Below are positions 12,001 to 43,973 of a DNA stretch of 64,000 bases, one piece after another. A program made the position numbers and the translations under genes. The notes below the pieces were generated by a model. The model was given only the letters and a program-made list of their open reading frames with translations, was not told the origin of the DNA and made no database searches. Origin of the DNA: an uncultured Planctomycetia bacterium. Lineage in GTDB: Bacteria > Omnitrophota > Gorgyraeia > 2-02-FULL-51-18 > JAGOUK01. How positions within the stretch are numbered: the first letter of the stretch is position 1; the number at the start of each line of letters is the position of its first letter. The stretch is from assembly GCA_964430735.1 (NCBI GenBank), contig CAYSFB010000002.1, forward strand, positions 94,027 through 158,026, written 5' to 3'.

Positions 12001-15000
12001 CGTCGATCTCGATCTTTCCGAAATAAACGTTGGAATGGACCTGGGACATCACCCGGCCGTTGATCCGAATTAACGGCTCCGTCCCCCCGTCCATTTGAAC
12101 GACGATCCTGGGCGGCTGGCCAGCCTCGATCGTGACCGGATAAATGTTATCCAGCTCCCGCATTTGGACGTAAGGCCTACCGGTGTAAGAAGTCTTGTCG
12201 GCGGGCCCGTCGTCCAAAGCAAGGACAAAAGACTGGGAACCGCTGATGATGCGCGTCGAATGACCGGGCAGAAGATCCAAAACAACCGGCTGCCAGGGGA
12301 CCAGCTGGGCCAATCGGCTCCCCTCGATCAACCCCTCGGCCTCCAGTTCTTTTAAAAACCGCCGGACCTGTTCGTAGTGCTCCCAATACTCGGGAGAAGG
12401 CGCCCATCCTGAATCGGCGTCCTGAGGGTAGATATCCAACAGGTTGTACAGATACTCTTCGGCCCTGTCGCCCGGACGCAGCGGACGGACGCTGCCGGTG
12501 TCCAGCAGGATATAGCGGTCCGGATTCTGCAGTCGGTAACCGAGCTGCTTCAGGGAAAAAATATCAGCAAAGATATATCCTTTACGAAGCAATTCTTTGA
12601 ACAGCCGGAAATATGCCGGATAATCCATGCGACGCACCAGTCGGTGCCGCTTCTGCAGGATCACGTACGGAAATTCATCCGAGATCATTTCCCGCATACC
12701 GTCGGACAACGACGCGATGTCCTCCGCGCTCAAAGGAATCAAAATGGGCTCCGTCGTGCTTCCCCGCAGCTCGGGGTTCTGCGCGGTCAACGCCCCTTCG
12801 AGCACGTCGCGGATGATGTCCTGGTGGGTCTGTTTGATTCTGACCCAGCCCTGATAGAGGGGGTGAGTACGCTTGGGTACGATTTTGAGGACCAGATCGG
12901 GATAAGTCATGCTTTTCAGAACGAACACCTGCGTGCCGACATTCGCGGATTCAAAAATCTTCCAGTCCGCGGACAGGATTTTTTTCAAAATGGCTGTCCG
13001 CTCGTGCGGCCAATCCGCCATCAGCAGCTGCCCGTCCAAATATCGCTCGAGATACAGAACCGCGTCATCCAGCGCCGCGTGTCGCATTCGTTCGTCTTCC
13101 GACAATCCCGAGAGTGCCGTGCGGATGTTCTCCAACGTCTGAACGTCCGTCAGTTCCAGATGCCCGGCTTTGATCCGGATCTTTTCCAGTCCGTCCAAAA
13201 TCCGGAATCGGGCCGCTTCTCCGTAGCGTGCGGCCAATGAATCGACCTGCTGGGCGACAACTGCGTCCTCCGCCAGCCGCGCGCCCTGCCCCGCGCGGAG
13301 ACGCTGCTTCAGCCGCTCATATCCGTCCAAGGCCGGCTGGCGCGACGGGCGTTCCAGAAGTCTAAAATAATCGGCTGCGATCGGTCCGCCGATGACCAGG
13401 TCGTTCAAATCCGCCGCCGTCGAGGTTGCGGCCTCGGTCCGGTGCATCAGGTACAGGATCGACTCAGAAACAGACCACTCCACGGCCCACCGATAGGGTT
13501 CCGGCAACGCTGAAGGCGATAACGATTCGACGACCGCGACCGCTTCACCCAAATACGCGCGCGCCGGGATCCCCGCTTGCTCGGCTCCCGACAGGAGCGG
13601 CTCCCATGCGTCAACACCGGCGAGCGGGTGGATCAGCATCTGCGCGCGCTGCGAAACGTCCCGTCGTTTCGCCCACTGCGGCCAGTGCGCAAGCAGCCGT
13701 TTATAAAACAATCCGACACCCCAGGCCTCGGCTTCGCCATCCCGCGGCGACTTGCCGCGAAGCGCCATTCCCGAAAGTGCGGTCCGAAGCAGGAGGGTGT
13801 CGTCGTCTGCGATCTCGTTCAAGGCCGCAAAACGCTTCTTGAGCATCTCCGCCGGCATGGGATAGGTCGTGTGGAACAGCCACCACCGCGCGGCGCTCGG
13901 AAGTGATTCGTACGCGGCGCCTTCGGGACGTAATTTTTGAATGACGTCATCGACGAGCTTCATCCGTACGCGGACGAACTCGATCCGCTCCGGGTCCGTC
14001 ACGTTGTAACCGGCCGGATCCGAACCGTCGAGCCGGATCGCGCTCGAGGCGATATTGAGGAGGATTTCCGTCAGGTCAAAAAGCTTTTTGCCTCCGGCTC
14101 CGCGGCTCGAAAACACCGCATCCCACTCGACCACCGTGTCGATCTTGCCGAAGGGCAGGTCGTCGAAGTGCGCCGAGCCGAGGGTGAGTTTTTTCCTGGC
14201 CCAGGACCATTTCTGGGCTGTCGTTTCGCCGGCAAGTACCTTGGTTCCGGAAAGCTCGAGCGTGCGGCGCAGAATATCGTCCAGCACCGGGTCGGCTTCC
14301 TGCTCGAGTTTTTCCAGCCGCGTCTGACCGACGCCCGGGTGCCGCGGAGCGCCGGTAAACTCCAATGCGATCTGGTCCAGCAGCCCGTAAATGCGCTGCT
14401 CGACCAGGGTCAGGATCTCGTAATCGTCCCTTTCCGAGTCGCCGGCGTCTCCGGTATCGCTGTCCTGCGTTCGCAGAACCTCGAGCTGGCGCCGGATCGT
14501 AAACCCGATCCATTGATGAAAGGCGTCTCCGGCCAGGTCAGCAAAGATCTTTTTTTCCTCCCGGACAGAGATCTTTTCGTTCGTATGGGAAACGACCCAG
14601 CCTCGGGCGTCCAACGTCGGGATTTGAACCTTCATATAGCCGTTTTTCATCGCCGTCAGGATGTCCAGGAACGCTTCGTACCGGCCGGTTCTCAGAAGGT
14701 TCTTTAAAAAGCGCAGGAACCGCTCCGGGATCAGAAGCCCCGTGTCCACCACCGGAAGCAGGGACAAAAACTGTCCGCTCCAGCCGTTGATCCGGTACAC
14801 CAGATCGAATTCGCCCAACGCCATCGCCCGGTGCGTCAGCCGCAGCAGTCCCGTCTGATATTCGATGATGCGTTCCCGAAGCTTGCGGAAGAGCATCCTC
14901 CGTCTTTCGAATGCGGGATCTTTTTTCGAAGCAGACGCGTACTGCTCTTCATGCTGGATGCGGTCGATCATTCCGTCCGGCGTCCGGGGGGCGTGACGGG

Positions 15001-17617
15001 CGATCTGCGTTACCTCCAGAGCCAGCGGCTTGGCCTCGAGCATCAGCTGCTCGAACTCGTCCCGGATCTTCCGGGCCTGCAGGCGTGTTTGAACCCAATC
15101 GATCAGGTACTGGAACCAGGCGCGTATGCGGAGCCGGGACGAGACGTATTCTTTTTCCTTGAGACTCCACTCGCGGTCGAACTGCCTCATCGACCACGCC
15201 ATCGTGCCGGCGGTCACGCGCGCTTGGCGCAACTTTTGGATCTGCTGATACCATTCCCATCCGTACAGAATGTCGAAGGCCATCCGAATCACTTCCGGCG
15301 ACCGCTCCCGTCCGTCCAGCCCCGAGGAGCTGCTCAGACGCGCCAACTCCTCCATCGAACAGTACATCATCGGCCGGTTCCGGCTGATCCGCCATCTTCC
15401 CCAACGATACCGGAACGACGGAGTCGGCACGAGGAGCCGCGTCTGCGGGATCACCGCCGCGATCATCATGTTCCTGCGTACTTGACCGGCTGAAGGGAAC
15501 TGGTCCCGGGGAAAGATCCTCTCGTCTTCCAGCGCGGCGAACACCGCCCGCAAATTGATCTCCGCACGCGGAAACAGCCGCGTGTAGCGCTCGAGCTTCT
15601 CACGGGCTTCGGCGAGTTCGCGGGCGAGCCGCTCGGAGCGGACCTCGCGCAGATCTGAGACAGGTTCGCGGCCGGTCCGCTCCAACTCCTCCTCCAGCAG
15701 CTTGATGTCGGTTCTCAGCTTGGACGGATTGATCGGATCGGATTCGTCGGGACGCTTCGAGTAATGCCCATCGCCCTGATGCATCAGCTTCCACGGAAGT
15801 GAACGGATCTTGCTGTCTGCGATCAGCATCAGCTTCATCGGCCCGCGCAAGTGGAGACGTCCCGATTTTTTCAGAGTCTCGTCCTCCTGTCCCGACGCCA
15901 GCCGCGCGCCGGAATCTTCACGAAGATCTCTTTGGCGTAAATGGCTCAGCGCCGAGCGGATCTGAGATTCGGTCCCTTCCGCGCCGGCAAGCCGGGCAGC
16001 AGCCATAGAGTCGAAGACGCCGGTGTCGGCCAGCGCCAGTTTGGGGATGTGGCGAAAAACACCGGGCGAAGCAGAAGTGTTGATACCGCGCTTCAAAGGC
16101 ATGAGCAGGATTTTTTCGTATTGGACGCGGTCGGTTTGTGTCCGGACTTGAGGGGTCAGGATCGCCCAGCCGTACCCCTCCTGCGCCAGAAGCTCTTTGA
16201 GGTGGTCGGTGTGATAACCGCCGGCGATGAGAACCGCGGCCTTTTGCCCCGAGGCATCCAGCGTCCGGCCGGCGCGGGCGACGAGCGAATGATCGCGGAG
16301 ATTCACGAGCGTGTAAAAAGCACGGATCAGACTCCAGGAGCGGTCCAAAACGGCTGTTTCCGGAATCCGGACATCCAAAAGTCCGAGCTGATCCGATTTT
16401 TTATGTAAAAAGCTTTTCCACTCCCCTGATTCAAAATACTTACGGTTCTGCCGGAGCTGCCGGAACTCACGGGAGGTGAGCTTGAGGTCGAAGGCCTTTT
16501 GGATCAGGTCAAAATAAATGCCGAGCAGCGCGATCTTGCGCGCGTCCTCGTCCGGAAGCAGTTGACGGTAGGAGCGGGCTTCGAGCTCCTCGGATTCACG
16601 GGCGAGAGCGTCCCAATCCATCCCGCGAAAAGTCCCCAGATATTCCGCGTAGCGGCGCAGATGCGGATATTCCCCTTCCGCGAGGTCCAGGAGCGACCGG
16701 ACGAGACGCTCGCGCTCGGCGGGAAGCGCGGCGCGGCCCAATCCATCCGCCAACGCCTGTGCGGCCTGCGACCGGGGACCGGACTCCAGCCGCCGCAGCA
16801 GGGCGTCCTGCTCCAGCGACAATGCCTCGTAGTTCATCGACGCATCCGTCCATTTGAGAACCTTGAGCTTCAAAAAAGACGGGTACGCATTGAGACTCAC
16901 GCGCGCCGCGTCCGCCAGCTTGAGCAAACCATCGATCGCCCGGATCGAGCCATCCGCTCCCGCTTCACGTTTCGCCCGCTCATAGTCCAGAAGCGTATCC
17001 GGATACAGCCGGTCTTTGAATGCCTGAAGCGCGTTCCGAACCTCCTGCCATTCGCGCGATGCGGCTCCCCTCACCGACGCGACGCGCGCATACGCCAACA
17101 ACGCCGCGCCGTAATGCCGGGTGTTTTCCACGCCGTGTAATTCCACGTCGGCTCCGCCGGTCAAACTCAGGTGCTCAGGTCCGCTCAAAATTCCTTCGCG
17201 AAGCAACTGCTCGGCGCCGAGCTTCAATTCACGCGGGCCGACCACCGCGCGCAACGAACCCAGGTCCGCGCGGCGGCTGCCGCCTTCGAGCAGGACGGTG
17301 CGGATGCCGTAGGTTGAAGACAGGGCGCGGATCGCAGCGGCGATGTTTTTTTGGCCTTCGTAATTGCCGTGGGGATCTTCGATGAGGACGAGAAGGCGGC
17401 CGTTCGATCCGGCATGCGCTTCTTTGAGCTGAACCGTTCCGGCGGGAAGGTCGATGCGCAGCGGGTTGGCGACCAAACCGGCCAGACCGGAGCCTTTGGC
17501 TTCCGGCCGCACCGGCACACGCTCTCCCAGCGACGCCGCCGCCCAGGAAATATCCTGAGCGATCAAAGCGATCGCCAAAGTCATAGCCGTTGTTTTTAAA
17601 AAGCGCTTAAAGCCCAT
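1..17617 (-). CDS. Giant multidomain protein (giant A), partial: the start codon and more than 5,870 N-terminal codons are in the window, the C-terminus lies beyond window position 1. It has a signal peptide, an N-terminal Tiki/TraB/ChaN/erythromycin-esterase-like domain (paralogous to the N-terminus of the 4429-aa protein at 48158..61447) and an internal alpha/beta-hydrolase domain (~9100..9990)
   Basis: Not listed in the ORF track because there is no in-window stop. Every minus-strand ORF the track lists between 1 and 17600 has its start coordinate = 0 or 2 mod 3, and none is in the frame = 1 mod 3, so that frame must be open all the way to the window edge. Hand translation from ATG 17617..17615 (RBS-like AAGAAGGG 5 nt upstream, in-frame TAA further upstream) gives MGFKRFLKTTAMTLAIALIAQDISWAAAS..., a signal peptide. 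It then reads ...NGRLLVLIEDPHGNYEGQKNIAAAIRALSSTYGIRTVLLEGGSR... and ...AAVLIAGGYHTDHL... The frame stays open and protein-like for ~1,350 codons (17617 to ~13550) and at every other point sampled (10018..9540, 9060..9000, 5100..5040, 240..180). Translating 10018..9540 gives ...FIVHGWQSSASEPLIAELARAVAGRGFAVVRPDLRGHRGRV...ERTFWFGHSYGGWTVERIASL..., a textbook alpha/beta-hydrolase nucleophile elbow (G-H-S-Y-G) preceded by an HG oxyanion motif. Confidence 0.65.
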   Translation of the reverse strand, partial: MGFKRFLKTTAMTLAIALIAQDISWAAASLGERVPVRPEAKGSGLAGLVANPLRIDLPAGTVQLKEAHAGSNGRLLVLIEDPHGNYEGQKNIAAAIRALSSTYGIRTVLLEGGSRRADLGSLRAVVGPRELKLGAEQLLREGILSGPEHLSLTGGADVELHGVENTRHYGAALLAYARVASVRGAASREWQEVRNALQAFKDRLYPDTLLDYERAKREAGADGSIRAIDGLLKLADAARVSLNAYPSFLKLKVLKWTDASMNYEALSLEQDALLRRLESGPRSQAAQALADGLGRAALPAERERLVRSLLDLAEGEYPHLRRYAEYLGTFRGMDWDALARESEELEARSYRQLLPDEDARKIALLGIYFDLIQKAFDLKLTSREFRQLRQNRKYFESGEWKSFLHKKSDQLGLLDVRIPETAVLDRSWSLIRAFYTLVNLRDHSLVARAGRTLDASGQKAAVLIAGGYHTDHLKELLAQEGYGWAILTPQVRTQTDRVQYEKILLMPLKRGINTSASPGVFRHIPKLALADTGVFDSMAAARLAGAEGTESQIRSALSHLRQRDLREDSGARLASGQEDETLKKSGRLHLRGPMKLMLIADSKIRSLPWKLMHQGDGHYSKRPDESDPINPSKLRTDIKLLEEELERTGREPVSDLREVRSERLARELAEAREKLERYTRLFPRAEINLRAVFAALEDERIFPRDQFPSAGQVRRNMMIAAVIPQTRLLVPTPSFRYRWGRWRISRNRPMMYCSMEELARLSSSSGLDGRERSPEVIRMAFDILYGWEWYQQIQKLRQARVTAGTMAWSMRQFDREWSLKEKEYVSSRLRIRAWFQYLIDWVQTRLQARKIRDEFEQLMLEAKPLALEVTQIARHAPRTPDGMIDRIQHEEQYASASKKDPAFERRRMLFRKLRERIIEYQTGLLRLTHRAMALGEFDLVYRINGWSGQFLSLLPVVDTGLLIPERFLRFLKNLLRTGRYEAFLDILTAMKNGYMKVQIPTLDARGWVVSHTNEKISVREEKKIFADLAGDAFHQWIGFTIRRQLEVLRTQDSDTGDAGDSERDDYEILTLVEQRIYGLLDQIALEFTGAPRHPGVGQTRLEKLEQEADPVLDDILRRTLELSGTKVLAGETTAQKWSWARKKLTLGSAHFDDLPFGKIDTVVEWDAVFSSRGAGGKKLFDLTEILLNIASSAIRLDGSDPAGYNVTDPERIEFVRVRMKLVDDVIQKLRPEGAAYESLPSAARWWLFHTTYPMPAEMLKKRFAALNEIADDDTLLLRTALSGMALRGKSPRDGEAEAWGVGLFYKRLLAHWPQWAKRRDVSQRAQMLIHPLAGVDAWEPLLSGAEQAGIPARAYLGEAVAVVESLSPSALPEPYRWAVEWSVSESILYLMHRTEAATSTAADLNDLVIGGPIAADYFRLLERPSRQPALDGYERLKQRLRAGQGARLAEDAVVAQQVDSLAARYGEAARFRILDGLEKIRIKAGHLELTDVQTLENIRTALSGLSEDERMRHAALDDAVLYLERYLDGQLLMADWPHERTAILKKILSADWKIFESANVGTQVFVLKSMTYPDLVLKIVPKRTHPLYQGWVRIKQTHQDIIRDVLEGALTAQNPELRGSTTEPILIPLSAEDIASLSDGMREMISDEFPYVILQKRHRLVRRMDYPAYFRLFKELLRKGYIFADIFSLKQLGYRLQNPDRYILLDTGSVRPLRPGDRAEEYLYNLLDIYPQDADSGWAPSPEYWEHYEQVRRFLKELEAEGLIEGSRLAQLVPWQPVVLDLLPGHSTRIISGSQSFVLALDDGPADKTSYTGRPYVQMRELDNIYPVTIEAGQPPRIVVQMDGGTEPLIRINGRVMSQVHSNVYFGKIEIDDLGGGKVEIRRTQAGDNPRPVHILANLPDGRKVYGARLAGLEDPWTVLMRGISGGDPKAPGSKDGSVARYSAAYFGLLDSRGLLDGQTVIYPAAGYDGYIGLYAPTVAITRSDERIDFLEHSSRAAAAGMLGLPYDRVRMSYVKGDILDDRMYAKARSLANVNSADSLTLLIKGLRSYVFGFREQAKADADLGNYLKQAVRLLRPAQIIVSDAADLDVARRVLTEGGEYTLYDEWLSREEKEALESSLRAVAGSGSTFSRFNFMGVNVQAPTAAAVFRRNAKPASGARMAWSWSHDKNSDWSWERRKEPMTKVVRALEKMGISRFYGPEGREKLPDGGPTMSTLSWFSLPWLDEADRKFYAYIRHLIEVYKINGIYLAPGINDLELGDFLLRGDAASGVDVWLRRGPEGTMLELQLAKDSRTFIKLSGQPDYWPLEKQPGELLPEEGQDGARMAASDRGRGSVATVYFEGEPYAYHDSGAQGSVYVNHAKGLAIKIFDQIPGVTTRVLDRVVEVNGGLKRHGLDVVEMLGVIEVRTGAGETAPAIWMRYVEGESLEDLYEQLIQSSASGAGAAIGLASRAEILLDEIDALTGGLADRRFAGGLDARPDLSNFVQPTGSGAVNVDPLEVGALRLGMDRESRGNRQSLRRLREPQRVGDLWEAAYELSFPLTGKPDERIVFYVDYPDGEGPFPTAFIVHGWQSSASEPLIAELARAVAGRGFAVVRPDLRGHRGRVWDETTRASADNRNASSGDVSTFTWGDSIDDLHRILSSLRTAQPGMYPRMDLERTFWFGHSYGGWTVERIASLAAGGNDPRFAGLKIGAVFGMASPLDPSRALLQIIRNGAFARSIAAAVPDYRLEQKWREWRTAARAPIGKWQGFKPWFAQTGEWVNDPFDISFMQEIPHHYVVGQMDNLMFLGGPILAIFYAMYARFINLHAPASLTIVKGMGHFFEKKYRTAVIQKILDRLDASVRPAGEAQVPAVEMLDIDQEGSPHAGLDTLFPIQTNHDRAGALAIASVAQFFDDHPRFIPTHPGSRSQETASRTRLLVTDDGSVQVRGGEGVRKIGYLELLAGPERTARIRLEPGESDRPAVWGVAYPLLRLALALEGWNLEEPDAFHQALDRPDLYFVTRFAPEGTPEVICLKYTANGVPYMIRLQTDEGGHGSERAVDRYYRIEVIRDPSGPRDGGDYAGGLSVTTVPDGTLQNYDIDISRKRTRRFPWLEGFLSDWLQPQRNRSFDWFNPDLTSSSSPVGARMSHQKSVRHFLNEALKLTGWVGIAYMSVVALSSLSPQVYWEYAWGWSNGIPTMLKGWSLLALIIFASQYPNKWKQVAIVGAPIGLMFAFGLDHMNLQNLGRALARVCTVFVTIFVAKTMREEGSIADRVSSAWGWALSSGLIGSFHQYTVWLPFVLKAIPDAAHRSAFDIGIAANLVHTPLSLTMAFVFGEKINLWRELRQQGLTGFVRNPQVRMVLEMLPYNFCYWYPVTRLAYGSDNPWNFFAVTSVASAVWVWFVSSKITRIATEAAKTKPAPGPKSSHGDGADDSGARMAAWVFLSPLYLAVAGLRHLAVWIMERFNDPLVVRVDLKDAEALRKAIPRLAAYCETIHFLSYPDEDGVFRHIDLTGTRARFGAGLLSIIDNDIPTRLLQSASYPMRVDVRRLPDDKNHMAIFDSGHLKSPFPRISAARLSVAKDRTAEGASDRSAYMTHQLKQAPAEKSYLLLNPSERELFFQAESILDSGDADRIAAWMLRVDAQVIPDLRSTGSPWARQLGTADRWLAFHTMYHIDGQQLYEQRLRTLAAVASDETLAWRAAFFGPHLRNNRTGFDDEDLIGIKLFLSRSLPALARLQNKMRTASEEVSYRRRQRWLLNALVFPESAGADARPRKPELRDLLDELTESSGTDVRSLVRSAWRALPEEDRGFLIERPFMFTEQYLVAVLRDVQSPDLTLDAVAAGEAASRRFYQQHRETLSGVTAAARQEEALQSLLIESGLPALSASGARLADIGSRKEVYEGIFDTNPAVRRSMAREWTADSDTAVEMGQVLDFITTLRLPSPYDTETILKAHQAKNPGYDREGRIAHARAAAIFSIYEWLSPESQPHVEVAEARLEEGLIRRKLTEDGEWLKFDHAQPGNFPRLSMSSQLALWQNVYRPWIAAHPDDFWYSPLSIERTLSLQELFFLLRWWQSDLDVLVTHGRSADFAQEYPYLAPLGRDTIFGINQKVAKKLRDSFKFVDWSFDAFLGLLKGSQDTFDHAIAIRNAYDSTISSQLARHSEPDGARLAANVEQQIRYHLSILESSDTDSERKQIAIAAIRELADPIQSVPEDILTRTMAVYDQTDDADIQRAAFRWLVEYGYQIDAVREWVFGIIAKESAAPAGIERDDIDQFMLALIRHTFSARFDWLDLRQSENVLEGLYLVGGAVMDSMREARKPTHGMRSYLHFIQRVATAGREDALREDDLQSLSSLGNPAALLKEIERQLDLAARLHKIDQAAFTIQRSMAFDTRWKNLLDNPNFPAAQELYQKINQGRADLALSTPSRRPDPESGKDRSSLDPEQIAFRINVRADVKKFGKKPADYLESLLNREGEVLMLDLDWFGAGLAEKVLEQLKELRRKGLLEYCALPLPPRALPHLDKILEGGDFSVISRDASTWVNVDYADERPSKSDLKEIKSETLGLLSELRQQGFKFIFYAPDDHRLRGELRTQAAARQLHDQLAKHKFPPTVVLGPLIGSDTDRSSRADSLVLEFESIPSERRHRTIALRVDSGINGFDKDRHDLIEALELPEFGIDLKRSAVIGPFRSILQGDAYQKAWDGLLHFHQEDSDGDNSGGWDWDGNDPPTGDPDLSDADLRPATADGARMAMDEEFRRKWLDKKVQLNEAFADYLHPKSQEIVQTIRGFANHGKDGFWREVANQWLTRENCASNPVYLEEQFDGVAATMRMLGSKMNDFGVEDHRSVSRRQYYHLEARVWKAAAAAAERGEFDPGYLKEFKAVEIALKALIPKVTLASVRVNELYDRIQNAKTADELDAIRLDVDLEPFLGQGSVEIVGGLNPYWIRVSREALADSSDLDLGIETGDELTPDRLAEKTTQFQKGLELLTPEARSAMAAGNNLIIGPGRNTQEIMMLHQEFPQMRREAVIDLSPSNLVEIKRRLEADPAVSDDIRSRTKLHHKPFWDDRNLTGTYSLVYSDFVFNDDFLEGEFRRGGRRLATWPQAIEGLGELVGENGAAFIRGPAPEWRFKEKGFFVRPVGPARWGERPLLVISRSDRVFASPRGARLAEVQPEKNPNASFQRMVTVIRDGGIHLHPSLEIASIARAYQGTEIRLHDGRQSVNAKEMSEIGLLAAGQGAMLTVSAVGPRAEEAVDEITGLSYFAPTKAARLAQRDRSPKTIRLTENRRQEPALIVETEPGSGSAKRDGSKELGARMAAGVKEIGDRDYSVALPAYLRQLASEIMAAQNDGFSVKLRLHPERFMIVNWLKAAGFQQHPSEPGVLVLKDAEAAGQFLYYLSDAMRGEDSAIVIDPAKLVFEAAEDADGKDTPQVLLSDRPDVSRAETALADFIVENGKFIRETSWVLGDMLKPGPARDEAQSCVLETMSRIQKKHVSGEGVDMLAAALKSSGLDPKTPPARIGDAEWSGWLRRYLIDDLDEVIRLGERGKAEGFSTAELLRISEATAQIKGRIGIIVDILDHNKFKSPGSNQWTLLHIQSVVYHSQIEEEIIGLDLLPDTGEDLPERGIRQIVFLSPEQALKKVRDPQLAAELEKLQGYLMEMRRAYLSEDHPYLGASLGRYYSDRVYRMHRLILRLKGAAQDAGAAHHFIHRLASELYFLGLLGLADMNEGGMFYWSEKYPTSLRRDRASLMTYAQSELMSLSQSLLRSLSSDEALSGEYYAQWEGSGAKRPIEKAALEIVRAGHDLRDEALARQFVENVLNDPYFIGPSEGIDYPVVLTARKLEEVPRITDGHLQDLVTVALEVLRFRDVQYLMATMRLTDMAEGVLNPFGLD

Positions 17618-17682
17618 CCAACCCTTCTTTTATTTGCCGCTTATTTATATAGAGGGGAAAAAGAATATTACCCGCAAGTATA

Positions 17683-19767: not shown

Positions 19768-19887
19768 AGGTTTTTCCTTAAAAAAAGTGCGCGAGGGGGC
19801 GTGTAAAAGTCCCTAGTTTAGACACCAAATCCGCCTGCGTCAAATTGTATCGGTTTTATGCCGGTCTAAGGAAAGAGAGGGCGGGAT

Positions 19888-22800
19888 TTAATCGACGAAC
19901 ATCTGATAGAGGCCGGATGCCAGACTCGAAACAGCCCGGCCGGCGTTCGCTTTGCCCCAGCCGAAATAGGCATCCCAACCCGAGTCGCCCAGGTCCGTGG
20001 AGGACGCGCGCATCGCGCCCAGGATCTGGTTCTCGTTATAGGAGCCCCCCATCATCGACAATCCGGCGAACATGCCGGTCAGCATCGGAGCCGCAAACGA
20101 GGTGCCCGTCCAGAGCTTGCCTTCACTGAAGACCTTGTAGCCGGAGGCCATGAAGTCCAACGCCGATCCATAGCCCGAGCCGGCGATGCGACGGCCCATA
20201 TAATCCGTGGCGCCGACCGAGATCACGCCGTCCAGTTCGGCCAGGACGGAAAAGTCCTTCCCCTGATTGCCTGCCGAGGCGATGATGGTCGCACCCAGGC
20301 CGCGGGCGAAGTCCACCGCGCTTTGGAGCAGGGACTTGAATTCGCGGACGGCCCGGTCGGCGTCGTAACCGAGCGCCGCGCCCCATCCGATGATGCCGTC
20401 GCGCATGAATTCCAGGGACAGGTTGATGACTCGGAAGCCGGACGTCGCAGCCATCTTGATAGCGTCGATCACCCGGATATGGTCCGGCGCGGTAAAAACA
20501 CTGACTTGAGAGTTCTGGCCGGTGATGCGGCGGAGAATGCCGGCCACGGCCATGGCGTGGTCCGAATCGGCGGATCCGGTCTCGATCACAGCCACCCGCG
20601 CCCCTCCGGTTCCCGCGGCGGACCAATCCGATCCGAAGCCCATGTCTTCCTTCCAGCATTCGTCGAGGAAGCAGTCCAGCGTGCGCGCATTCTCCGTCAC
20701 CATGCGGCGGACCTGTTCTCCCTTGGAATTGTAGATAAGCGTGCGCAAGTGCTTGCCGTTCTTGTCAAAAAACGTCTCCGTGTTCAGGGCGGAGGCCGCG
20801 AGCGCCGGGTCGTCCTTGTAAGTGGCGACGATATAGGATTCGTCCGAAAAAACGGTCTTGATGCGGCGGGATTTGGAATCATACTCGTACGCGACCGCGC
20901 CCTCCGCATCGGCCTTGGAGAACCGCTCCCCGATAAGCTGCTTGGAATCGGAGAAAAGCTGGTACGACCCGTCGGGATGCCGGACCGATTTGAGCGTGGT
21001 TCCGTCCGCGTGATAGGTGTATTCGTGCGCGCCGGCGGCGTCGTAGACGGTCTTCGAGAGAAGCTTGCCGGACGCCGTACGCGTCTCGACCTGTTTCAGA
21101 ATCCGGGTCAGCCCATCGTAGCCGTAATCCTGCGTCTGGCCATCGGCGATCTGAGTTCTGCGGACGAGGCGTCCGACGCGGTTTTGCACGTCGGCGGTGT
21201 CGTAAGCCAGGATCGCGTGGTCATTCTGCTCGAGAGTGACGTTGCCCGCCCGGTCGAGCAGCCGGAAGCTCTTGTCCGAACGCTCTTCGCGGTAGACCCA
21301 GCCTTCGGAGTTGTAGAGACGATTGGTGCCATCGGCCAGCTTTTCCATGACGGGTCTGCCCTGGGCATCGTTGAGAAGCACGCGACCATCGGGGTATGCG
21401 ACACGCAGCGCCGTTCCGGACGGGGCGTACTCGGTCAGAATTCCGGCCGCGTTGTCGAAAAAGCTCCGGAGCTTGCCGTCCGCGTCAAGAGCCCGGACGT
21501 CTCCGGCGCGGTTCATGCCTGCGGCGTTGAAGCCGTCCCGCGCGTATCCGGACGCGTCCAAGCCGGTGGTCCGGTGAAAACCGTCTCGGCCGTAGCCCTG
21601 GCGGTTGAACCCGGTCGCCGCGTGGTAACCGTCGCGGCCGTAGCCTTCGGGATCGAGGCCGGTGGAGGGATCGAAGCCGTCCTTGGCGAAGCCCTTGCGG
21701 TCGAGGCCGGTGACGGAATGAAACCCGTCTGCCGCATAACCTTCGCGGTCGATTCCGCTCGGGTTAAAACCGTCGCGGCCGTAACCCTCGCGGTCGAGGC
21801 CGGTGGTCTTATGGAAGCCGTCCCGGCCGAAGAGCGCCCGGTCGTAACCGTCACGGTCGAACCCGTCGCGGCCGTAACCCTGACGGTTGAACCCGCTGGT
21901 TCCGTGATAACCGTCGCGGCCGTAACCCTCGCGGTCGAGGCCTGAAGTCTTGTGGAAGCCGTCGCGGCCGAAGCCGTCCTGGTCGTACCCGTCCTTGTCC
22001 ATACTCCGGACGACCTTGCCCTGCGCGTCCATTTCCTTCCATCCTCCGTCGGCGTATTCCTCGCGGACGAGGATGCCGTCAAGATAACGGCGGACGGTGC
22101 CGTTTCCGGCGGAGTAAAACACGGAGGTCTTCCCGGCGGAGTCGAACAGGCGGTAATCGCCGTTGGCGAATTCCTCCCGGGCGGGCTTGCCGCCGGAATG
22201 GATCAGGATCCGGCCGTCGCCGAACAGGATTTTTTGGACCGCTCCGTCCGCCGGATCGTATTCAGTCCGGTTGCCGGTGGCGGACTCAAAGGCATAAACC
22301 TTCACACCTGTATTCGAAAAGACCGCATAGTCCCCGTTCGGCTCATCTTGACGGACAAGAACACCGTCCATTCCGTATGTCTTGGTCACTCCGCGGAGAT
22401 CCGTAACCGATTTGATCCGGTCCGTCCCGGGATGATAAGCCGTGGTGGTCTTGGCCGCAGCGTCATAAAACTCGGTGACCCGGCCGTCCGCTCCGAACTT
22501 CTTCACATCCCCGTTGACGAATGTCGTCTGAATAAGCCGGCCCGAAGCGTCGTATTCGCTCTTGTCCTTGGGACGCAGGTTGTCCGAAAGGTTCGTGAAG
22601 CTCTTCCAGACATCGGGGTTGGCGGCTTGGTGCAGGGCCAGCGCCTTTTCGTACCCGGCCGTCCGCGTCACGGTCCGGATCCCGTTGGTGACGGTCGTCG
22701 ATTCACTGCCGTTCGCCTGAGAACCCATGTTGATGTACACCGAACTCGACGACGATTCGGAGACGGACAGGTCCATATGCGAAAGGACGCGGTTCGTCGT

Positions 22801-24444
22801 GTCGATGAGCCGGATGTAGCCGCCGTCAGTCGTGCGCTCCTGGGTAAGCTGATTCTGTGACGTAGTCGTGGACAGAACCCCTGACCGGAATTCATCCACC
22901 GAGTAACTGTAGACCGTATTGGTCCGCAGAGTTTTTCCACCAAAAACCTCGTATTCGCTGCCCTGCGTCTGCTGACTCCGGAAGTACATATTTCCCATCC
23001 ACTCCTCTCCGCGGGTGTCGACTGTCGCCGTAACGACCTCGGTGCCGATTTTCTTCATCCCGTACACGGTGGTGTAGAAGCGCTTGCGGCCCGTCGAATA
23101 GTACAACTCTCCGTACACCGAGGCGAGATAGGCCTTGCCATCGATCCTGGTGTAATCGAAGGTATACCGCTCGTCGACGATCTGGCCGGAATAGCTGAAC
23201 AGCATGTTGGGGTTGTAGTCCGTCCGGGAGGAGAGCAGGAGATCGTTTCCAAATACCTTAAATTCCCGTGCGCTTCTCCGAACCTGGGTCACTGCCCCCG
23301 CCGCGTTCGTGACCTTGGCATCCATTCCGGTCAGCCGGACGACACGGACGCCGTTCAGATCATAAGTCTGATGCTTAAAATCGCGGCGTGTGACGAGACC
23401 GTCCTTCTTATAAGTCATCTCCGTACGCACCACGAGTCCGTTGCGGTCCAGATAAACTCCCATTTCCCAGGGATGCGTCGTGTAGGTGGTGGAGGTGGTA
23501 TACGACTTGGTGTTGCCCTTGAAATAGAACTCCGAGACTCCCGACGGCCCGCGTCCGTTCAGATCTTCCGCGAGCCGCATCCGGATAGTTCCGTTGCTGT
23601 AACGTGTATCGGGAAGGGTGATCGTAAGCGCGCCGGTCACGGCGTCCCACGTGGCGCCGGAGCAAAGGGCATTCGCGCACCGGGCGGTGCCGTCGGGCAA
23701 AATGTCGATGCTCCAGTCTCCGACCAGTTGCTGATCGTTGATCGGGCCCAAATCCGAAAGCAGCGAAAGCCCGCCGCTGAGCGCTTCCCCGCTCCCCACG
23801 TTATATTTGTAATCATTCAATCCGCGTTCGCCGTTCGATATTTCAAAACGGGAGAGCTTCCGGAGACCCCCGTCGATACGGTACGTGAACTTGTACGAAG
23901 TGCCCGACGCGAGGCCTCGAACACCGACGGCAACATAGTCGACACCGGCCGTCTTGGTATAGGTGTAGGTAAAAATGTGAGTCAGAACCTTGTCGGAATT
24001 GTACCGCTCCACTTTTTTGGGCTGGTCCGTATTGCCTTCGTAAGAGAGAATTTTTTCTTCACTGCCGTCCGCATAGAGCACGCGCGAGATCCGGTTCAGC
24101 GCATCATCGGCGTATTCCGTGACGGTTCCGGTTTTGGCATCCCGGCTGCGCAGGAGGCGACCGCTCGGGTACCGCGTGATGTCGGACTCGGTAGCCTGTT
24201 GGACCTCAACTTCGTCCCATTCCCCCGTCTGGCCCAAAATGGCGTCAGGAGTTTTGGCGGTACCCTGCGGGGCTTGGTTCGACGAACCGCCCGGGACGAG
24301 GTCTGAAGCCAGGGCAAAGGAAGCTTCACCGGCGAGGATCTGGCCCAAGAAGGCCAAAAGAACCGCCAAACTCAGAACGCGTATCCGATGGAGTTTATAT
24401 CGGTAACTGACTTTCATAGGCAGAGTATGCCCAAAATTTATCAA
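19888..24444 (-). CDS. Secreted 1518-aa protein: signal peptide, YD (RHS-type) repeats, a 10 x 16-aa tandem repeat block, more YD repeats, and a C-terminal subtilase-like (S8-like) domain
   Basis: The N-terminus MKVSYRYKLHRIRVLSLAVLLAFLGQILAGEASFALA is a Sec signal, so the true start may be the internal ATG at 24417 rather than 24444. YD motifs are scattered through the protein (SEYDASGRLIQTTF, TEYDPADGAVQKILFGDGRIL, YEYDSKSRRIKTVF, YDTADVQNRVGRLV). The C-terminus contains ARVAVIETGSADSDHAMAVAGI, SAGNQG and GTSFAAPMLTGMFAGL, which are the subtilase Asp/His/Asn/Ser motif analogues. The Asp position is occupied by Glu, and the D-to-H spacing is unusually short. Confidence 0.8.
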   Translation of the reverse strand: MINFGHTLPMKVSYRYKLHRIRVLSLAVLLAFLGQILAGEASFALASDLVPGGSSNQAPQGTAKTPDAILGQTGEWDEVEVQQATESDITRYPSGRLLRSRDAKTGTVTEYADDALNRISRVLYADGSEEKILSYEGNTDQPKKVERYNSDKVLTHIFTYTYTKTAGVDYVAVGVRGLASGTSYKFTYRIDGGLRKLSRFEISNGERGLNDYKYNVGSGEALSGGLSLLSDLGPINDQQLVGDWSIDILPDGTARCANALCSGATWDAVTGALTITLPDTRYSNGTIRMRLAEDLNGRGPSGVSEFYFKGNTKSYTTSTTYTTHPWEMGVYLDRNGLVVRTEMTYKKDGLVTRRDFKHQTYDLNGVRVVRLTGMDAKVTNAAGAVTQVRRSAREFKVFGNDLLLSSRTDYNPNMLFSYSGQIVDERYTFDYTRIDGKAYLASVYGELYYSTGRKRFYTTVYGMKKIGTEVVTATVDTRGEEWMGNMYFRSQQTQGSEYEVFGGKTLRTNTVYSYSVDEFRSGVLSTTTSQNQLTQERTTDGGYIRLIDTTNRVLSHMDLSVSESSSSSVYINMGSQANGSESTTVTNGIRTVTRTAGYEKALALHQAANPDVWKSFTNLSDNLRPKDKSEYDASGRLIQTTFVNGDVKKFGADGRVTEFYDAAAKTTTAYHPGTDRIKSVTDLRGVTKTYGMDGVLVRQDEPNGDYAVFSNTGVKVYAFESATGNRTEYDPADGAVQKILFGDGRILIHSGGKPAREEFANGDYRLFDSAGKTSVFYSAGNGTVRRYLDGILVREEYADGGWKEMDAQGKVVRSMDKDGYDQDGFGRDGFHKTSGLDREGYGRDGYHGTSGFNRQGYGRDGFDRDGYDRALFGRDGFHKTTGLDREGYGRDGFNPSGIDREGYAADGFHSVTGLDRKGFAKDGFDPSTGLDPEGYGRDGYHAATGFNRQGYGRDGFHRTTGLDASGYARDGFNAAGMNRAGDVRALDADGKLRSFFDNAAGILTEYAPSGTALRVAYPDGRVLLNDAQGRPVMEKLADGTNRLYNSEGWVYREERSDKSFRLLDRAGNVTLEQNDHAILAYDTADVQNRVGRLVRRTQIADGQTQDYGYDGLTRILKQVETRTASGKLLSKTVYDAAGAHEYTYHADGTTLKSVRHPDGSYQLFSDSKQLIGERFSKADAEGAVAYEYDSKSRRIKTVFSDESYIVATYKDDPALAASALNTETFFDKNGKHLRTLIYNSKGEQVRRMVTENARTLDCFLDECWKEDMGFGSDWSAAGTGGARVAVIETGSADSDHAMAVAGILRRITGQNSQVSVFTAPDHIRVIDAIKMAATSGFRVINLSLEFMRDGIIGWGAALGYDADRAVREFKSLLQSAVDFARGLGATIIASAGNQGKDFSVLAELDGVISVGATDYMGRRIAGSGYGSALDFMASGYKVFSEGKLWTGTSFAAPMLTGMFAGLSMMGGSYNENQILGAMRASSTDLGDSGWDAYFGWGKANAGRAVSSLASGLYQMFVD
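21510..21990 (-). repeat. In-frame tandem DNA repeat (~48 bp x 10) encoding the 16-aa unit DGFHxTTGLDREGYGR inside the 1518-aa protein
   Basis: Near-identical repeated units are visible in the nucleotide sequence (gtcgcggccgtaaccctcgcggtcgaggccggtg...). The translated product is DGFHKTSGLDREGYGR DGYHGTSGFNRQGYGR DGFDRDGYDRALFGR DGFHKTTGLDREGYGR ... (10 units). Confidence 0.75.
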
Positions 24445-24664
24445 AAATCAATATATGTCATAATAAAATTGACAATTGTAATCACAAATAATTTAATAGA
24501 ATAAATATATTGAATGGGTGCTGATTCAGAGCACGACAAGTGAGATGTTAAAGTCCCTTGCACCAAATTGTATGGACTGAGGGAGAGGCGGGGTTGGCCA
24601 GAACATCGAATCCGCTTTTTTCCGTTTAGCGTTATAATGCCCTTTTACCCAACAAGAGATAATC
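24445..24664. promoter_or_regulatory. AT-rich divergent promoter region between the 1518-aa protein gene (-) and the AAE transporter gene (+). The -10 TATAAT for the + gene is at 24633..24638 (leader ~26 nt, with aagaga RBS). On the other strand there is a TTGACA/TTGTCA-like hexamer with A/T-rich -10 candidates.
   Basis: This is a ~220-bp island of ~35% GC in a 64% GC background, and it contains tataat, ttgaca and taataaaattgacaattgtaat elements. The element assignment is by eye only. Confidence 0.5.
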
Positions 24665-26332: not shown

Positions 26333-29300
26333 TCAGCGGGTCTGCCCCGCACGAAACAGGAACGGGTCCGTGCCGATGGTGCCGACGAGGCTTTCGCGGT
26401 AAGCGGCGGTCTTCGCATGCGCGAGTTTTTTCTGCGCGTCCGCCAATTTCTGACGAACCGCCTCCTTCTCGCCTTCCGACACCCGGGCCGTCGGCCCTGA
26501 GAGCTCCGTCAGATAATCGACATGGGATTGGTACAGCAGCAGGTCATTGCGCTGCTTCATGTCGAGCCGCTCACGATACCAGGCGCTTCGGACCACTTCG
26601 TCCCGCTCGAACATCCGGCGGATGTCCGGATGCATGACGGGCTTCGACTCGTAATGTCCGTGCGCCATGATATGCAGCAGCGCCTTCAGCGGCGGACAGG
26701 CCGCTTCGATACTGCCGTCGTTGAAGTAGTGCTCGGCGACGCGCCGATAGGTGACGAGGATGTTTTCGATCCCCTCCACGAACGCGTCCGCGTCCTGAAG
26801 CTCGGGCTTCAGCATCTCGCGGGTAAAAACGATGTTCGGATTGTTGAACACGCGGCCTAGGAACGCGTTGACGAAACGCTGCGTGATCCGATATCCCAGA
26901 ATGCTGGCCTGGACCCGCTTGCCCTTGTGGTCAAAGTCCTCCACCCGTTCCAAAAATCCGTTTCGGATCAGATAAACGGCCTCTTGCTCTTCCGCGCGCA
27001 TCCGGCACCAAATCTCGGGAACGAGCAGGGAGATGTCGTGGTCCACCCGGTAATTCGGACCGATGTAGCTCGCCGCCGAAGAAAATCCGTCGTACCCGGT
27101 GAGAACGAACGACAGAAACGCGTTGTTGAGGTCCACGATCGGAGGCAGCGCATTGAAGGGGCCTTTTGTGAGCGCGCCTTCGGAACCGAAGCCGGTGGTC
27201 GAAGGCGACTTTCCGGTCAGCGAAGAAATGAAGTCCATGAACAGTTCCGGCAATTCCTGAAAATGAACCGGATTGTACACGGCCAGCGCCGGCACGCCCG
27301 CCTTGCGGTCAGGCGGATTGTTCCGGCGGCCGGGCAGAACCGCGTTCACGGGCTGATGCACCGGCTTGTCGACCGGAACCAGGCGGCGCAGCCGTGCGGC
27401 GAGTTCGGCAATGTAGACGGAGCGCGGGTTCACATGGTCGGGGCGCTTCTGCAGGTAGCGCGGGTTCTTGGTCGGCTTGCCGTCGACGATCCGGGAATGC
27501 GCCGACGAGACCACGAACTGGTCCGGCCCGGCGTTGGCCGCGAAGTCGCGGAGCAGCTTCTTCATCGGATCCGTGAACTGATCAAACTTCACGACGTCCT
27601 GAACGATGTCGCGGACCGGCTCGAGCCCGAGCGGTTCGAAGTTGGAAATAAAAGTCCCCGGCGTCGCAAGGTCCGTCTCGGCCTGCTTGTCGAATCCCCG
27701 GTAAACGGCGTCGTCCGGACGCTGGAACAGATAGTTCTCGCAGTTGCGGATCATCTTCAGACTGGGGTTCGAAAAGTCAGGGTTCAAATGCTGCATCGCC
27801 GCGCGCGGAACCGTGACGGAGGCCGTGATGTCGTCGGCGGCCTGGATCTTGTTGGCAGCCGAATAGTCCGTCCGAACGCGGAAGATGCGCCAAGATCCGT
27901 CCTTTTCGCGTCCGACACGCAGATAGTTGGCGACCAGCTTGCGGTTTTTAAATTTGAGCTCGTGCCCCGGATGGCCGTTCACGAGGTCGACCGAAAAACG
28001 GCTGCGCCAATCCCCGCCCCAATCGGCGCGGTAGAACCGCTTCACGCAGAACAGAATCTCCTTGATGTAATCCGGGATCGACTGGAGCCACGCGTTGTAC
28101 TCGTCCGTGTGCTCTTCCGAAACGGTGAACAGCTTGATCACCGAGCCGAGAGAACGTTCGTTCGACAGCACCGGCCGGCTCGGGCGTCCGGGAGGGGGCG
28201 CGCTGCCGGGCCTGAACCGGCCCGAGTAATCGCGCTTCAGAAGCTCTTCGACCGCGTCCATGTCCTTGTTGAAATCGGCGACAAAAACGGGTCCCTGGAT
28301 CATCGCGTCGACGATCGACTTGGAGATCTCGGACTTCCCGCCGCCGGACACGGTGCAGGGCTTGTGGCACAGCACGCCTTCGGGCACGGTGCCGATCAAA
28401 TGCCAGGCATAACCGCCGGTCTGGCGCTTGATCCGCACCTTGTAACCGGACGGGAGCAGGTACGTGTGGTCGGCCAGGAGCTTGATCCTGCAGGCCTTGC
28501 CCCCGCGATTCCAGCTGATCGCCTGGTCTTGAAGGTTGAAGCGCGCGTCTTCCGGGACGAGGATGACATCGCGATGCGTCCGGTCGACCGCGTGCCCTTC
28601 CGGCATCACATCGACGTTCTTGCCGTAGATCTTGAGCGCGTCGGCCATCGTATTGCGGCTGCGCGACATATGCGGTTCAAGGACAAATTCTTCGCCGAGG
28701 TCGTAGGTCGCGTATGCCAGCGCGCCGCCGGAATGCTCCTCTTCGCACAGACCGTAGAGGTTCGCGGCGTAGCTGATCTGGGTCTTCACTTCCTTTTTGC
28801 AGTACCCGAAATAATTGTCGGCGATGATCGTGACGATGACGCCGCGCGCGTCACGGCAGGTGATTTTAAAGGCGCCGCCGTCGTTATAGAGCTCGGACGC
28901 GTCCTTCCAGCACATGCCGTCGCGCCGCTGACGTTCGTTCGCCTGGTCGTAATGCGGGAGGCCGAGATCCTTTTTCCGGAAGGTCGTGAGATGCGGCGCG
29001 AGGATCACGCAGCCGGTGTGGCCGGACCAGTGTTCGACGTCGCGGCCGGCGTCGTGATCGGGAATATAGGGATCTCCGGCATTGCCGAAGATCGTTTCGA
29101 CGAAGTCGAGATTGGAAACGAGGTTGCCGGGGACGAAAAAGCGGATCTCCATCGATTTTTCGCTGATGAATCCCGGGACGTCGGGACAAATCACCGGTCT
29201 GAGCAGCAGCGAAACAAAAAGTTCGGCAGGCTTCGCTTCGGCGGACGTGAACGGAAGCTGCAGCAGTTCTTTGGGCGGGCGGAACGCCTCGATCAGAAGC

Positions 29301-29812
29301 CGCCCGAAGACCGATTTGGGCACCGCTTTTTTATCATCCGGGATCGGGAGGCCCCCTTCGGTGACGTGGAACACTCCCTGCGTCGTCCGGCGATCGTTGC
29401 GCGGGTTGTGGAGAACTCCCTGCCAGATGCGGTACGAATCGATGATCGCCGAATGAAATTCGTCGCTCGCGCTCGGCAGCGACATCAGACGCGCCATTCC
29501 GGGACGATCGAGGATGAAGGGATTGAGCGGCAGACGGGTGGAGGCACGGGGCAGCCCTTCGACGCCGGACAAAACGTCGTCCAGATAATCCTGAATGCGC
29601 TGGTCCGCGGGACTCAGCGCGTGATCGGCGAAGCGGCTCCGTTCGCGATGGCTGCGGAACAGCGGGTCAGCGAGCTTAAGAAGCTCAGACTCATCCGAAA
29701 CCTGCTCGATGTCAAAGCCCATGTAATTGAGCTTCAGGCGAATGTAGTCAGCCAACTGCTGGGCATGGGGATCCGCTAGGCTGGAACGCATGGAACACCT
29801 CTTATGGGTCAA
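26333..29812 (-). CDS. Large (1159 aa) conserved cytoplasmic protein. The size and composition are compatible with PPi-type phosphoenolpyruvate carboxykinase (PPi-PEPCK family); the assignment is tentative.
   Basis: The amino-acid composition is diverse and non-repetitive, and there is no signal peptide or TM segment. The length matches the ~1150-aa PPi-PEPCK family. The overlapping + strand ORF 26927..29779 (950 aa) is Arg/Val/Gly-rich antisense. A -10 TATAAT (minus strand, plus coordinates 29853..29858) and a GAGGTG RBS lie upstream. Confidence 0.75.
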   Translation of the reverse strand: MTHKRCSMRSSLADPHAQQLADYIRLKLNYMGFDIEQVSDESELLKLADPLFRSHRERSRFADHALSPADQRIQDYLDDVLSGVEGLPRASTRLPLNPFILDRPGMARLMSLPSASDEFHSAIIDSYRIWQGVLHNPRNDRRTTQGVFHVTEGGLPIPDDKKAVPKSVFGRLLIEAFRPPKELLQLPFTSAEAKPAELFVSLLLRPVICPDVPGFISEKSMEIRFFVPGNLVSNLDFVETIFGNAGDPYIPDHDAGRDVEHWSGHTGCVILAPHLTTFRKKDLGLPHYDQANERQRRDGMCWKDASELYNDGGAFKITCRDARGVIVTIIADNYFGYCKKEVKTQISYAANLYGLCEEEHSGGALAYATYDLGEEFVLEPHMSRSRNTMADALKIYGKNVDVMPEGHAVDRTHRDVILVPEDARFNLQDQAISWNRGGKACRIKLLADHTYLLPSGYKVRIKRQTGGYAWHLIGTVPEGVLCHKPCTVSGGGKSEISKSIVDAMIQGPVFVADFNKDMDAVEELLKRDYSGRFRPGSAPPPGRPSRPVLSNERSLGSVIKLFTVSEEHTDEYNAWLQSIPDYIKEILFCVKRFYRADWGGDWRSRFSVDLVNGHPGHELKFKNRKLVANYLRVGREKDGSWRIFRVRTDYSAANKIQAADDITASVTVPRAAMQHLNPDFSNPSLKMIRNCENYLFQRPDDAVYRGFDKQAETDLATPGTFISNFEPLGLEPVRDIVQDVVKFDQFTDPMKKLLRDFAANAGPDQFVVSSAHSRIVDGKPTKNPRYLQKRPDHVNPRSVYIAELAARLRRLVPVDKPVHQPVNAVLPGRRNNPPDRKAGVPALAVYNPVHFQELPELFMDFISSLTGKSPSTTGFGSEGALTKGPFNALPPIVDLNNAFLSFVLTGYDGFSSAASYIGPNYRVDHDISLLVPEIWCRMRAEEQEAVYLIRNGFLERVEDFDHKGKRVQASILGYRITQRFVNAFLGRVFNNPNIVFTREMLKPELQDADAFVEGIENILVTYRRVAEHYFNDGSIEAACPPLKALLHIMAHGHYESKPVMHPDIRRMFERDEVVRSAWYRERLDMKQRNDLLLYQSHVDYLTELSGPTARVSEGEKEAVRQKLADAQKKLAHAKTAAYRESLVGTIGTDPFLFRAGQTR

Positions 29813-43880: not shown

Positions 43881-43973
43881 ACACCCACACGCTATCATGC
43901 GAGTCAGTGTATGTCAACTTGTGATAAGTATTGTTTATTATGGATTAGAAGGATTTAACTCGGAAATGGGCGT

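Follow-up and report, generated by a model that had tools for sequence, protein, structure and literature searches.

Can a subtilase work with a glutamate in place of its catalytic aspartate, and with hardly anything left between that residue and the catalytic histidine? The question is raised by one gene in a 64,000-nucleotide (nt) stretch of DNA, referred to here as the window, from an uncultured Planctomycetia bacterium that GTDB places in the Omnitrophota (GenBank assembly GCA_964430735.1, contig CAYSFB010000002.1, positions 94,027 to 158,026 of the forward strand). The gene lies on the minus strand in the open reading frame (ORF) 19888..24444, which has 1518 codons when counted from a TTG and is the longest ORF in its region. 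It encodes a large repeat protein that ends in a Peptidase_S8, i.e., subtilase, domain. Our answer is a qualified yes: on balance, we believe that the protein represents a rare, uncharacterised family of Sec-exported modular proteins with a compact Glu-His-Ser subtilase that is predicted to be active. Residue numbers throughout are counted from TTG 24444.

The features of the protease domain on which the argument turns are as follows.

19915..20607, minus strand: compact Peptidase_S8 domain, residues 1280-1510 (Pfam, PDB profile, AF2 and Foldseek)
20581-20583, minus strand: GAG codon of Glu1288, in the catalytic-Asp column
20557-20559, minus strand: codon of His1296, the predicted catalytic His
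20266-20268, minus strand: codon of Asn1393, the predicted oxyanion Asn
20098-20100, minus strand: codon of Ser1449, the predicted nucleophile Ser

The S8 fold and family membership are certain, as is the identity of the first triad residue, which is Glu. The four motifs named in the original prediction of a C-terminal subtilase are all present: VAVIETG at residue 1284, DHAMAVAG at 1295, SAGNQG at 1390, and GTSFAAP at 1447. The domain scores 55.2 bits with the Pfam profile PF00082 (Peptidase_S8), whose gathering score is 21.8, and a profile built from the family finds AK.1 protease (E = 2e-29) and thermitase (E = 1e-24) among the PDB sequences. NCBIfam returns sub-threshold matches only, to mycosin, PatA/G, and QhpE. 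An AlphaFold2 (AF2) model of residues 1255-1518 has a predicted local distance difference test score (pLDDT) of 76.9 and a predicted template modelling score (pTM) of 0.81. In the numbering of that model, Glu ends the strand 29-35, His begins the helix 40-54, and Ser begins the helix 194-210, which is a subtilisin-like arrangement; the top Foldseek matches are subtilisin BPN' variants (probability 1.0, template modelling score, TM, 0.66). The family profile match, the α/β fold, the catalytic His, the oxyanion Asn, and the Ser in G-T-S-x-A-x-P are those of an S8 protein. Where strand β1 ends, the canonical Asp is replaced by Glu1288.

Enzymes of clan SB use an Asp-His-Ser triad (S8) or a Glu-Asp-Ser triad (S53). 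The placement of Glu1288 in the position of the S8 Asp, also part of the original prediction, is borne out by two alignments. In a MAFFT alignment that includes subtilisin BPN' and the closest S8 proteins from the database, Glu1288 stands in the column of Asp32, His1296 in that of His64, Asn1393 in that of Asn155, and Ser1449 in that of Ser221. A HMMER alignment of the family profile to thermitase sets the Glu at Asp38 ('VAvIEag' against 'IAIVDTG'). The shortening of the stretch that follows is equally clear. Glu1288 and His1296 are 8 positions apart, with 7 residues in between; that is, the Asp-His segment is largely deleted, and in the MAFFT alignment the protein lacks the 25-60 residues by which these two motifs are usually separated. 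The same alignment has a second deletion after strand 3 and an insertion of ~19 residues after NLSLEF, and in the His motif HGT has become HAM. A canonical Asp elsewhere was looked for, and in the alignment of the nine family members the Glu-His loop contains no alternative conserved Asp. No I9-type propeptide was detected.

The family was defined by an exhaustive HMMER search of 1.84 billion representative proteins with residues 986-1518 as the query. The search yielded eight relatives of 936-1589 amino acids (aa) and equal architecture, P0125-P0131 and P0133, and all nine family representatives come from metagenome assemblies. A word-indexed search with the whole protein as query matched itself only, and scans of genome and metagenome contigs yielded nothing beyond S8 genes of the usual Asp type, at 28-34% identity (L001, L002). 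Across the nine members, the residues at the acid position are E,E,E,E,E,E,E,D,E. Glu is thus present in seven of the eight relatives, or eight of the nine members including the window protein, and the bearer of Asp is P0131. His, Asn, and G-T-S are invariant in all nine, the N-L-S-L motif of the substrate-binding strand is retained, and the spacer between Glu or Asp and His is 7-12 residues long in every member. Of the 149 best representatives, only members of this family pair Glu with a short spacer; 107 of the others have Asp and a long spacer. Conservation is highest in the S8 domain, which is the very last part of every member: it is 37-76% identical to that of the window protein, versus 12-31% for the repeat body.

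Is the site with Glu likely to work? A working active site is favoured because the catalytic columns are kept, and the acid is only ever Glu or Asp, in members that are 25-50% identical overall. That is, conservation favours activity with Glu in the triad. The original prediction offered two readings, a divergent Glu-His-Ser variant or a pseudo-protease, and the catalytic columns conserved in nine of nine members tilt that choice towards a functional variant. In such an enzyme, catalysis would rely on Ser1449 as nucleophile, on His1296 as general base, and on Asn1393 as oxyanion residue, and Glu1288 would replace the canonical Asp at the end of strand β1. Without the Asp-His loop and its edge strand, β1 would lead almost straight into the His helix.

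Several points weigh against an active and exported enzyme. The Pfam match covers profile positions 98-288 only, leaving the N-terminal part of the profile, which bears the catalytic Asp, unaligned. Deletion of the edge strand could impair folding or stability. Literature searches turned up no description of a natural S8 enzyme whose triad contains Glu. The signal peptide is called from inspection by eye, and AF2 gives the first ~100 residues of an internal repeat array, described below, a pLDDT of <50.

The strongest alternative is a pseudo-protease, in which catalysis was lost through the Asp-to-Glu exchange and the Asp-His deletion, and the domain now acts as a binding or sensor module. There is precedent, as CspC and CspA of Clostridioides difficile are documented S8-fold pseudoproteases with a non-canonical triad (PMC7200643, PMC6636752). 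The loss of the canonical Asp, the N-terminal third of the Pfam profile left without a match up to position 98, and the change from HGT to HAM all fit this alternative. Pseudoenzymes, however, usually lose the nucleophile or the base, and in the present family His, Asn, and G-T-S-x-A-x-P are invariant, the acid column accepts Glu or Asp only, and N-L-S-L is kept. In CspC and CspA, triad residues are lost outright, whereas here the catalytic columns are all kept and the exchange of Asp for Glu is conservative. We consider loss of catalysis unlikely, yet the most serious competitor of an active Glu-His-Ser enzyme.

Comparison with known subtilases indicates where the family departs from them. 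It resembles subtilisin BPN', thermitase, and AK.1 protease in fold, in catalytic order, in having the His at a helix N-terminus and Asn as the oxyanion residue, and in the GTSxAxP and N-L-S-L motifs. It differs in the Glu of eight of the nine members, in the reduction of the Asp-His segment of ~25-60 residues, which holds an edge strand in subtilisin, to 7-11 residues, and in the fusion of S8 to the C-terminus of a repeat protein of >1200 aa. Very short S8 cores are an existing theme, as the mycosins and the QhpE-type minimal proteases show. The mycosin model (TIGR03921) is the best NCBIfam match, at 58.1 bits far below its cut-off of 278.75, and the QhpE model (NF049966) gives 28.8 bits against a cut-off of 165 over profile positions 39-211 of 219. 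Neither quinohemoprotein amine dehydrogenase nor type VII secretion is linked to the gene in the genome.

The remainder of the protein bears on what the protease might act upon. From the 5' flank of the gene to the S8 domain, the layout is as follows.

24420..24560, minus strand: AT-rich upstream region with a sigma-70-like site, TTGTGA-16-TATTAT, at 24487..24460 (consensus match only)
19888..24417, minus strand: whole gene, 1509 aa, stop TAA at 19888-19890; the TTG start of the original prediction, at 24444, is 27 nt further upstream
24307..24417, minus strand: signal-peptide-like N-terminus, residues 10-46; the n-region is basic, the hydrophobic stretch is VLSLAVLLAFLGQILAG, and A-L-A precedes S47 (judged by eye)
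24211..24306, minus strand: mature N-terminal motif, residues 47-78, SDLVPGGSSNQAPQGTAKTPDAILGQTGEWDE (family alignment)
22000..24210, minus strand: variable β-rich body, residues 79-815; its YD/RHS-like repeats are weak, and Pfam RHS_repeat fits best at residues 94-128
21496..21999, minus strand: repeat array, residues 816-983 (168 residues), with two pentads ahead of ten 15-16-aa units
20677..21495, minus strand: second β-hairpin-repeat block and conserved pre-protease segment, residues 984-1256 (AF2, alignment)
20638..20676, minus strand: junction motif D1257-C1258-x4-C1263-x5-G1269 (DCFLDECWKEDMG), invariant in nine of nine members

The deposited NCBI protein, P0001, is 100% identical to the translation and has 1509 aa, which places its start at ATG 24417. 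This ATG is the more plausible start because TTG 24444 sits within an AT-rich, promoter-like stretch with the sigma-70-like site. The predicted order of parts in the family is a signal peptide, a mature N-terminal motif, a YD/MORN-like hairpin body of variable length, a pre-protease segment, the DC-x4-C-x5-G junction, and a minimal subtilase. A comparable signal-peptide-like start is seen in the alignment of all eight relatives. Residues 47-78 are 32-69% identical to the relatives (9% in P0130), against 12-31% for the region that follows, and the family pattern is [LM][VI]PG..S...G.A.TPDAVLG.TG[DE]W. This motif of ~30 residues, LVPG...QGTAKTPDAVLGQTGEW, lies directly after the predicted signal-peptide cleavage site and is common to most members and weak in P0130. 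A role in sorting or docking is conceivable, as is that of a pro-segment; we know of nothing that matches the motif.

Between the array and the protease, AF2 predicts a regular ribbon of 4-8-residue strands (residues ~983-1257, pLDDT mostly 75-90), and the segment ahead of S8 is 31-71% identical across the family. The repeat body as a whole may form an extended stalk or a binding module. A fold search with a 718-residue AF2 model was dominated by matches to the S8 domain and gave nothing on the hairpin body. In the same model, the junction folds into a pair of short helices that separate the hairpin ribbon from the S8 core. The DC-x4-C-x5-G motif lies ~20 residues ahead of strand β1, and it may be a disulphide and/or a site of processing in cis. 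Subtilases generally cut their N-terminal pro-region in cis. Cleavage in cis near the junction is a reasonable proposal for this reason, and the S8 domain may cut at or near the conserved Cys residues as other subtilases do.

A second alternative takes this proposal further. The S8 domain would be a self-cleaving C-terminal maturation domain that folds or assembles the repeat body and then cuts itself off, in functional analogy to Peptidase_S74, the intramolecular chaperone of phage tail fibres, and it would have no external substrates. Its place at the extreme C-terminus in all members, with an invariant junction motif just upstream, would suit such a role, as would the self-processing in cis that is established for subtilases in general; in addition, the array repeat is common to proteins in tail-fibre modules that use S74 domains. 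However, there is no sequence relation to S74, a full substrate-binding strand and an oxyanion hole are retained, which fits a general protease, and no sign of oligomeric fibre formation was found. We regard a purely self-directed protease as quite improbable. It overlaps with the active Glu-His-Ser subtilase proposed above and is not exclusive of it.

The original prediction framed the protein as an RHS/YD toxin, and a third alternative follows: a Rhs/YD polymorphic toxin delivered into competitors, with the protease as its C-terminal toxin. The body is a divergent YD/MORN-like hairpin-repeat region. It resembles that of the Rhs/YD proteins (Tc toxins, teneurins, and WapA) in its β-hairpin repeats of ~20 residues and its D-x-x-G-R/K-like turns. 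YD repeats on either side of the array, as originally described, can indeed be seen by eye, but they fall short of the profile thresholds: RHS_repeat (PF05593) reaches 16.5 of the 22 bits set as its gathering score, and YD_repeat_2x (TIGR01643) reaches 13.7 bits, where 15.8 is the cut-off. Weak RHS_repeat matches recur in six of the nine members (best E = 1.3e-4), and MORN_2 is matched in one. These repeats, the large size of a secreted protein, and the tandem paralogue beside P0125 are what speaks for a toxin.

The hallmarks of Rhs toxins are missing. The Rhs-associated core (TIGR03696) has no NCBIfam match at E <= 1; a regular-expression search for the closure motifs DPxGL and PxxxxDPxG and for YxYDxxG came back empty; and neither a closure nor an aspartyl-autoprotease motif is present. 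A polymorphic toxin is recognised by a variable C-terminus accompanied by an immunity gene. Here, the C-terminal domain is conserved, indeed the most conserved part, and among the called neighbours of the sampled loci there is no downstream immunity-like gene and no PAAR, VgrG, or type VI secretion system (T6SS) gene. The genes downstream differ by locus and encode a transketolase, LuxC, an alpha-amylase-like protein, or a GGDEF protein. Further, the export signal, judged by eye, is of the Sec type and is not a marker of T6SS or of the type VII secretion system. The toxin framing did not hold up, and we reject a Rhs polymorphic toxin as very unlikely, given the sub-threshold repeats, the missing core and closure motifs, the conserved C-terminus, and the missing immunity gene. 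Literature searches for fusions of YD repeats with subtilisin returned nothing relevant.

We now return to the array. It was first described as ten perfectly periodic units of 16 aa. Ten units are indeed found, after two 5-aa units, with lengths of 16,16,15,16,15,16,16,16,16,16 aa; two units have 15 residues, and the periodicity is not strict. The consensus is GRDG[FY]HxTTGLDREGY. At the DNA level, Tandem Repeats Finder reports a 48-nt period (8.1 copies, 63% matches) and a 141-nt period (3 copies, 74%) over 21562..21993, and the units are 60-86% identical, the best pair being 86% over 90 nt. Successive [DE]G[FY] motifs are spaced by 5 or 11 residues. Therefore, the 16-aa unit consists of one pentad and a second pentad with a 6-residue HxxTGL insert. 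The pentad pattern is x[DE]G[FY]x, within a wider repeat class x[DE]G[FYW]x, and charge is nearly balanced, with 29 acidic and 23 basic residues.

Within the family, the distribution of the array is uneven. The orthologue P0125, which comes from a different sample, has a collinear array that is 74% identical over 145 aligned residues with indels of units. About two units are present in P0133, and P0130 has a poorly aligned stretch at 31% identity. The array is missing in the remaining five of the eight relatives (P0126-P0129 and P0131). Judged from these alignments, it is an accessory, lineage-specific insertion that lies outside the family core and whose unit number changes over evolutionary time. 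AF2 renders the last ~60 array residues (pLDDT 69-84) as two-residue bridges that continue into the hairpin ribbon. Most likely, the array would add a flexible or short-strand β extension to the stalk.

That the repeat belongs to no described family, as originally claimed, stands in so far as Pfam lacks it; that it is peculiar to this protein does not. With the array alone as query, 114 proteins (P0011-P0124) were retrieved, down to E = 1e-30, and the similarity is far beyond chance. These homologues are 108-310 aa long and nearly all are without a Pfam domain or a name. The long unit DGFHxxTGLDRxGY recurs in P0012, P0018, and P0026, e.g., as GYGRDGFHHSTKLDRQGYG in P0018. Against Pfam at E <= 10, the array matches only DUF5972, at 12.8 bits, which is noise; PHROGs gives no match, PDB sequences give nothing below E = 0.09, and a literature search with the repeat motif strings found nothing relevant. 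A canonical pentapeptide repeat, A[DN]Lxx, was considered and rejected: there is no PF00805 match and the register does not fit. On inspection, the array motifs do not fit the consensus patterns of a calcium-binding EF-hand, thrombospondin-type-3, or β-roll repeat.

Several of the array homologues were sampled for their genomic context, which is phage-like. The gene of P0040 has a Peptidase_S74 tail-fibre gene on either side (L008 5048..9701), P0026 is one of a series of small ORFs without annotation, and relatives of the array occur on two IMG/VR contigs. One of these, a 70-kb contig, has three tandem paralogues (L017 2782..6390), two of them with long (DGYDx)n tails and the third without. 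Hypothetical proteins with the repeat are also encoded by two cultured phages, Edwardsiella phage MSW-3 and Acinetobacter phage Acba_23. The pentad repeat of the window protein is shared by the small proteins, from phages or hypothetical, that carry (G[YFW][DN]xxG)n tails. These are 130-310 aa long and differ from the window protein in having unrelated N-terminal domains and neither S8 nor hairpin body, and in the window protein the repeat is an internal insert.

We tentatively suggest a joint picture, and hold it a little less firmly than the enzyme proposal itself: a Glu-His-Ser clade with a minimal core, always C-terminal on secreted hairpin-repeat proteins and matured at DC-x4-C, together with an undescribed class of pentad/16-aa repeats shared by bacterial surface and phage proteins. 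If true, a conserved Glu-His-Ser S8 protein without the Asp-His segment would be a new solution in a very well-studied enzyme fold. It would also provide a smaller natural subtilase core of relevance for protease and peptiligase engineering. Such enzymes will be misread by annotation pipelines that insist on the canonical Asp or depend on the N-terminal part of the Pfam S8 profile. Metagenomic and phage proteins often contain the pentad repeat, for which no family model exists; with a Pfam-type model and a structure, >100 proteins that lack a family assignment could be annotated. The main audience is protease enzymologists and cataloguers of protein repeats.

The last alternative, an assembly or annotation artefact in the form of a chimeric ORF or of a collapsed or expanded array, might be suspected in a metagenome-derived genome with 48-nt and ~141-nt DNA repeats and with Logan contigs that break in the 3' part of the gene, but it is hardly credible, as P0125 from another sample is collinear, array included, the reading frame is intact through the array, and DNA units of 60-86% identity (best pair, 86% over 90 nt) are well resolvable. 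The originally voiced risk of assembly collapse was overstated, and a modest risk remains.

Several observations concern the loci of the family. Directly downstream of P0125 lies a tandem paralogue of the family (L003 5155..7662, plus strand). Over 836 aa, it shares 35% identity with the window protein, and it retains the N-terminal motif; the contig ends as its array begins. Logan contigs from three runs (L014 2..778, L015, and L016, of SRR14271366, SRR14271365, and SRR14271372) represent the same organism, with an identical transketolase. These short-read contigs break in the 3' part of the target gene, away from the repeat array. P0129 and P0133 both come from one of the runs SRR14271365/66/72. 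The neighbourhoods of family members vary, the sole shared item being an upstream TRAM methyltransferase gene at P0128 and P0129.

In the window, the neighbours of the target gene are ordinary chromosomal genes, and a tblastn search found no paralogues inside it. Scans with Rfam and for tRNAs gave no match. The divergent upstream neighbour is an Asp-Al_Ex/TrkA-C transporter gene that starts at 24665 on the plus strand. Downstream, on the same strand, a transketolase gene follows after a gap of 120 nt (19768..19887). A promoter-like site lies in the gap at 19843..19815 on the minus strand, and no terminator-like hairpin was found there; the two genes could share a transcript or be transcribed separately. 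A 1159-aa ORF without a credible Pfam domain (26333..29812, minus strand) separates the transporter gene from a DUF255/thioredoxin-like gene (30583..32802).

The 64 kb also hold three giant genes, all on the minus strand: 2..17629, 32841..43898, and 48158..61447. Their presence may indicate a lineage in which such genes abound. The second encodes 3685 aa and has no Pfam match, and the third encodes 4429 aa and matches HEAT_2 only. The first is a frame of at least 5876 codons that runs off the window start, and the plus-strand ORFs at 4676..17140, which have no Pfam match, are most likely its shadows.

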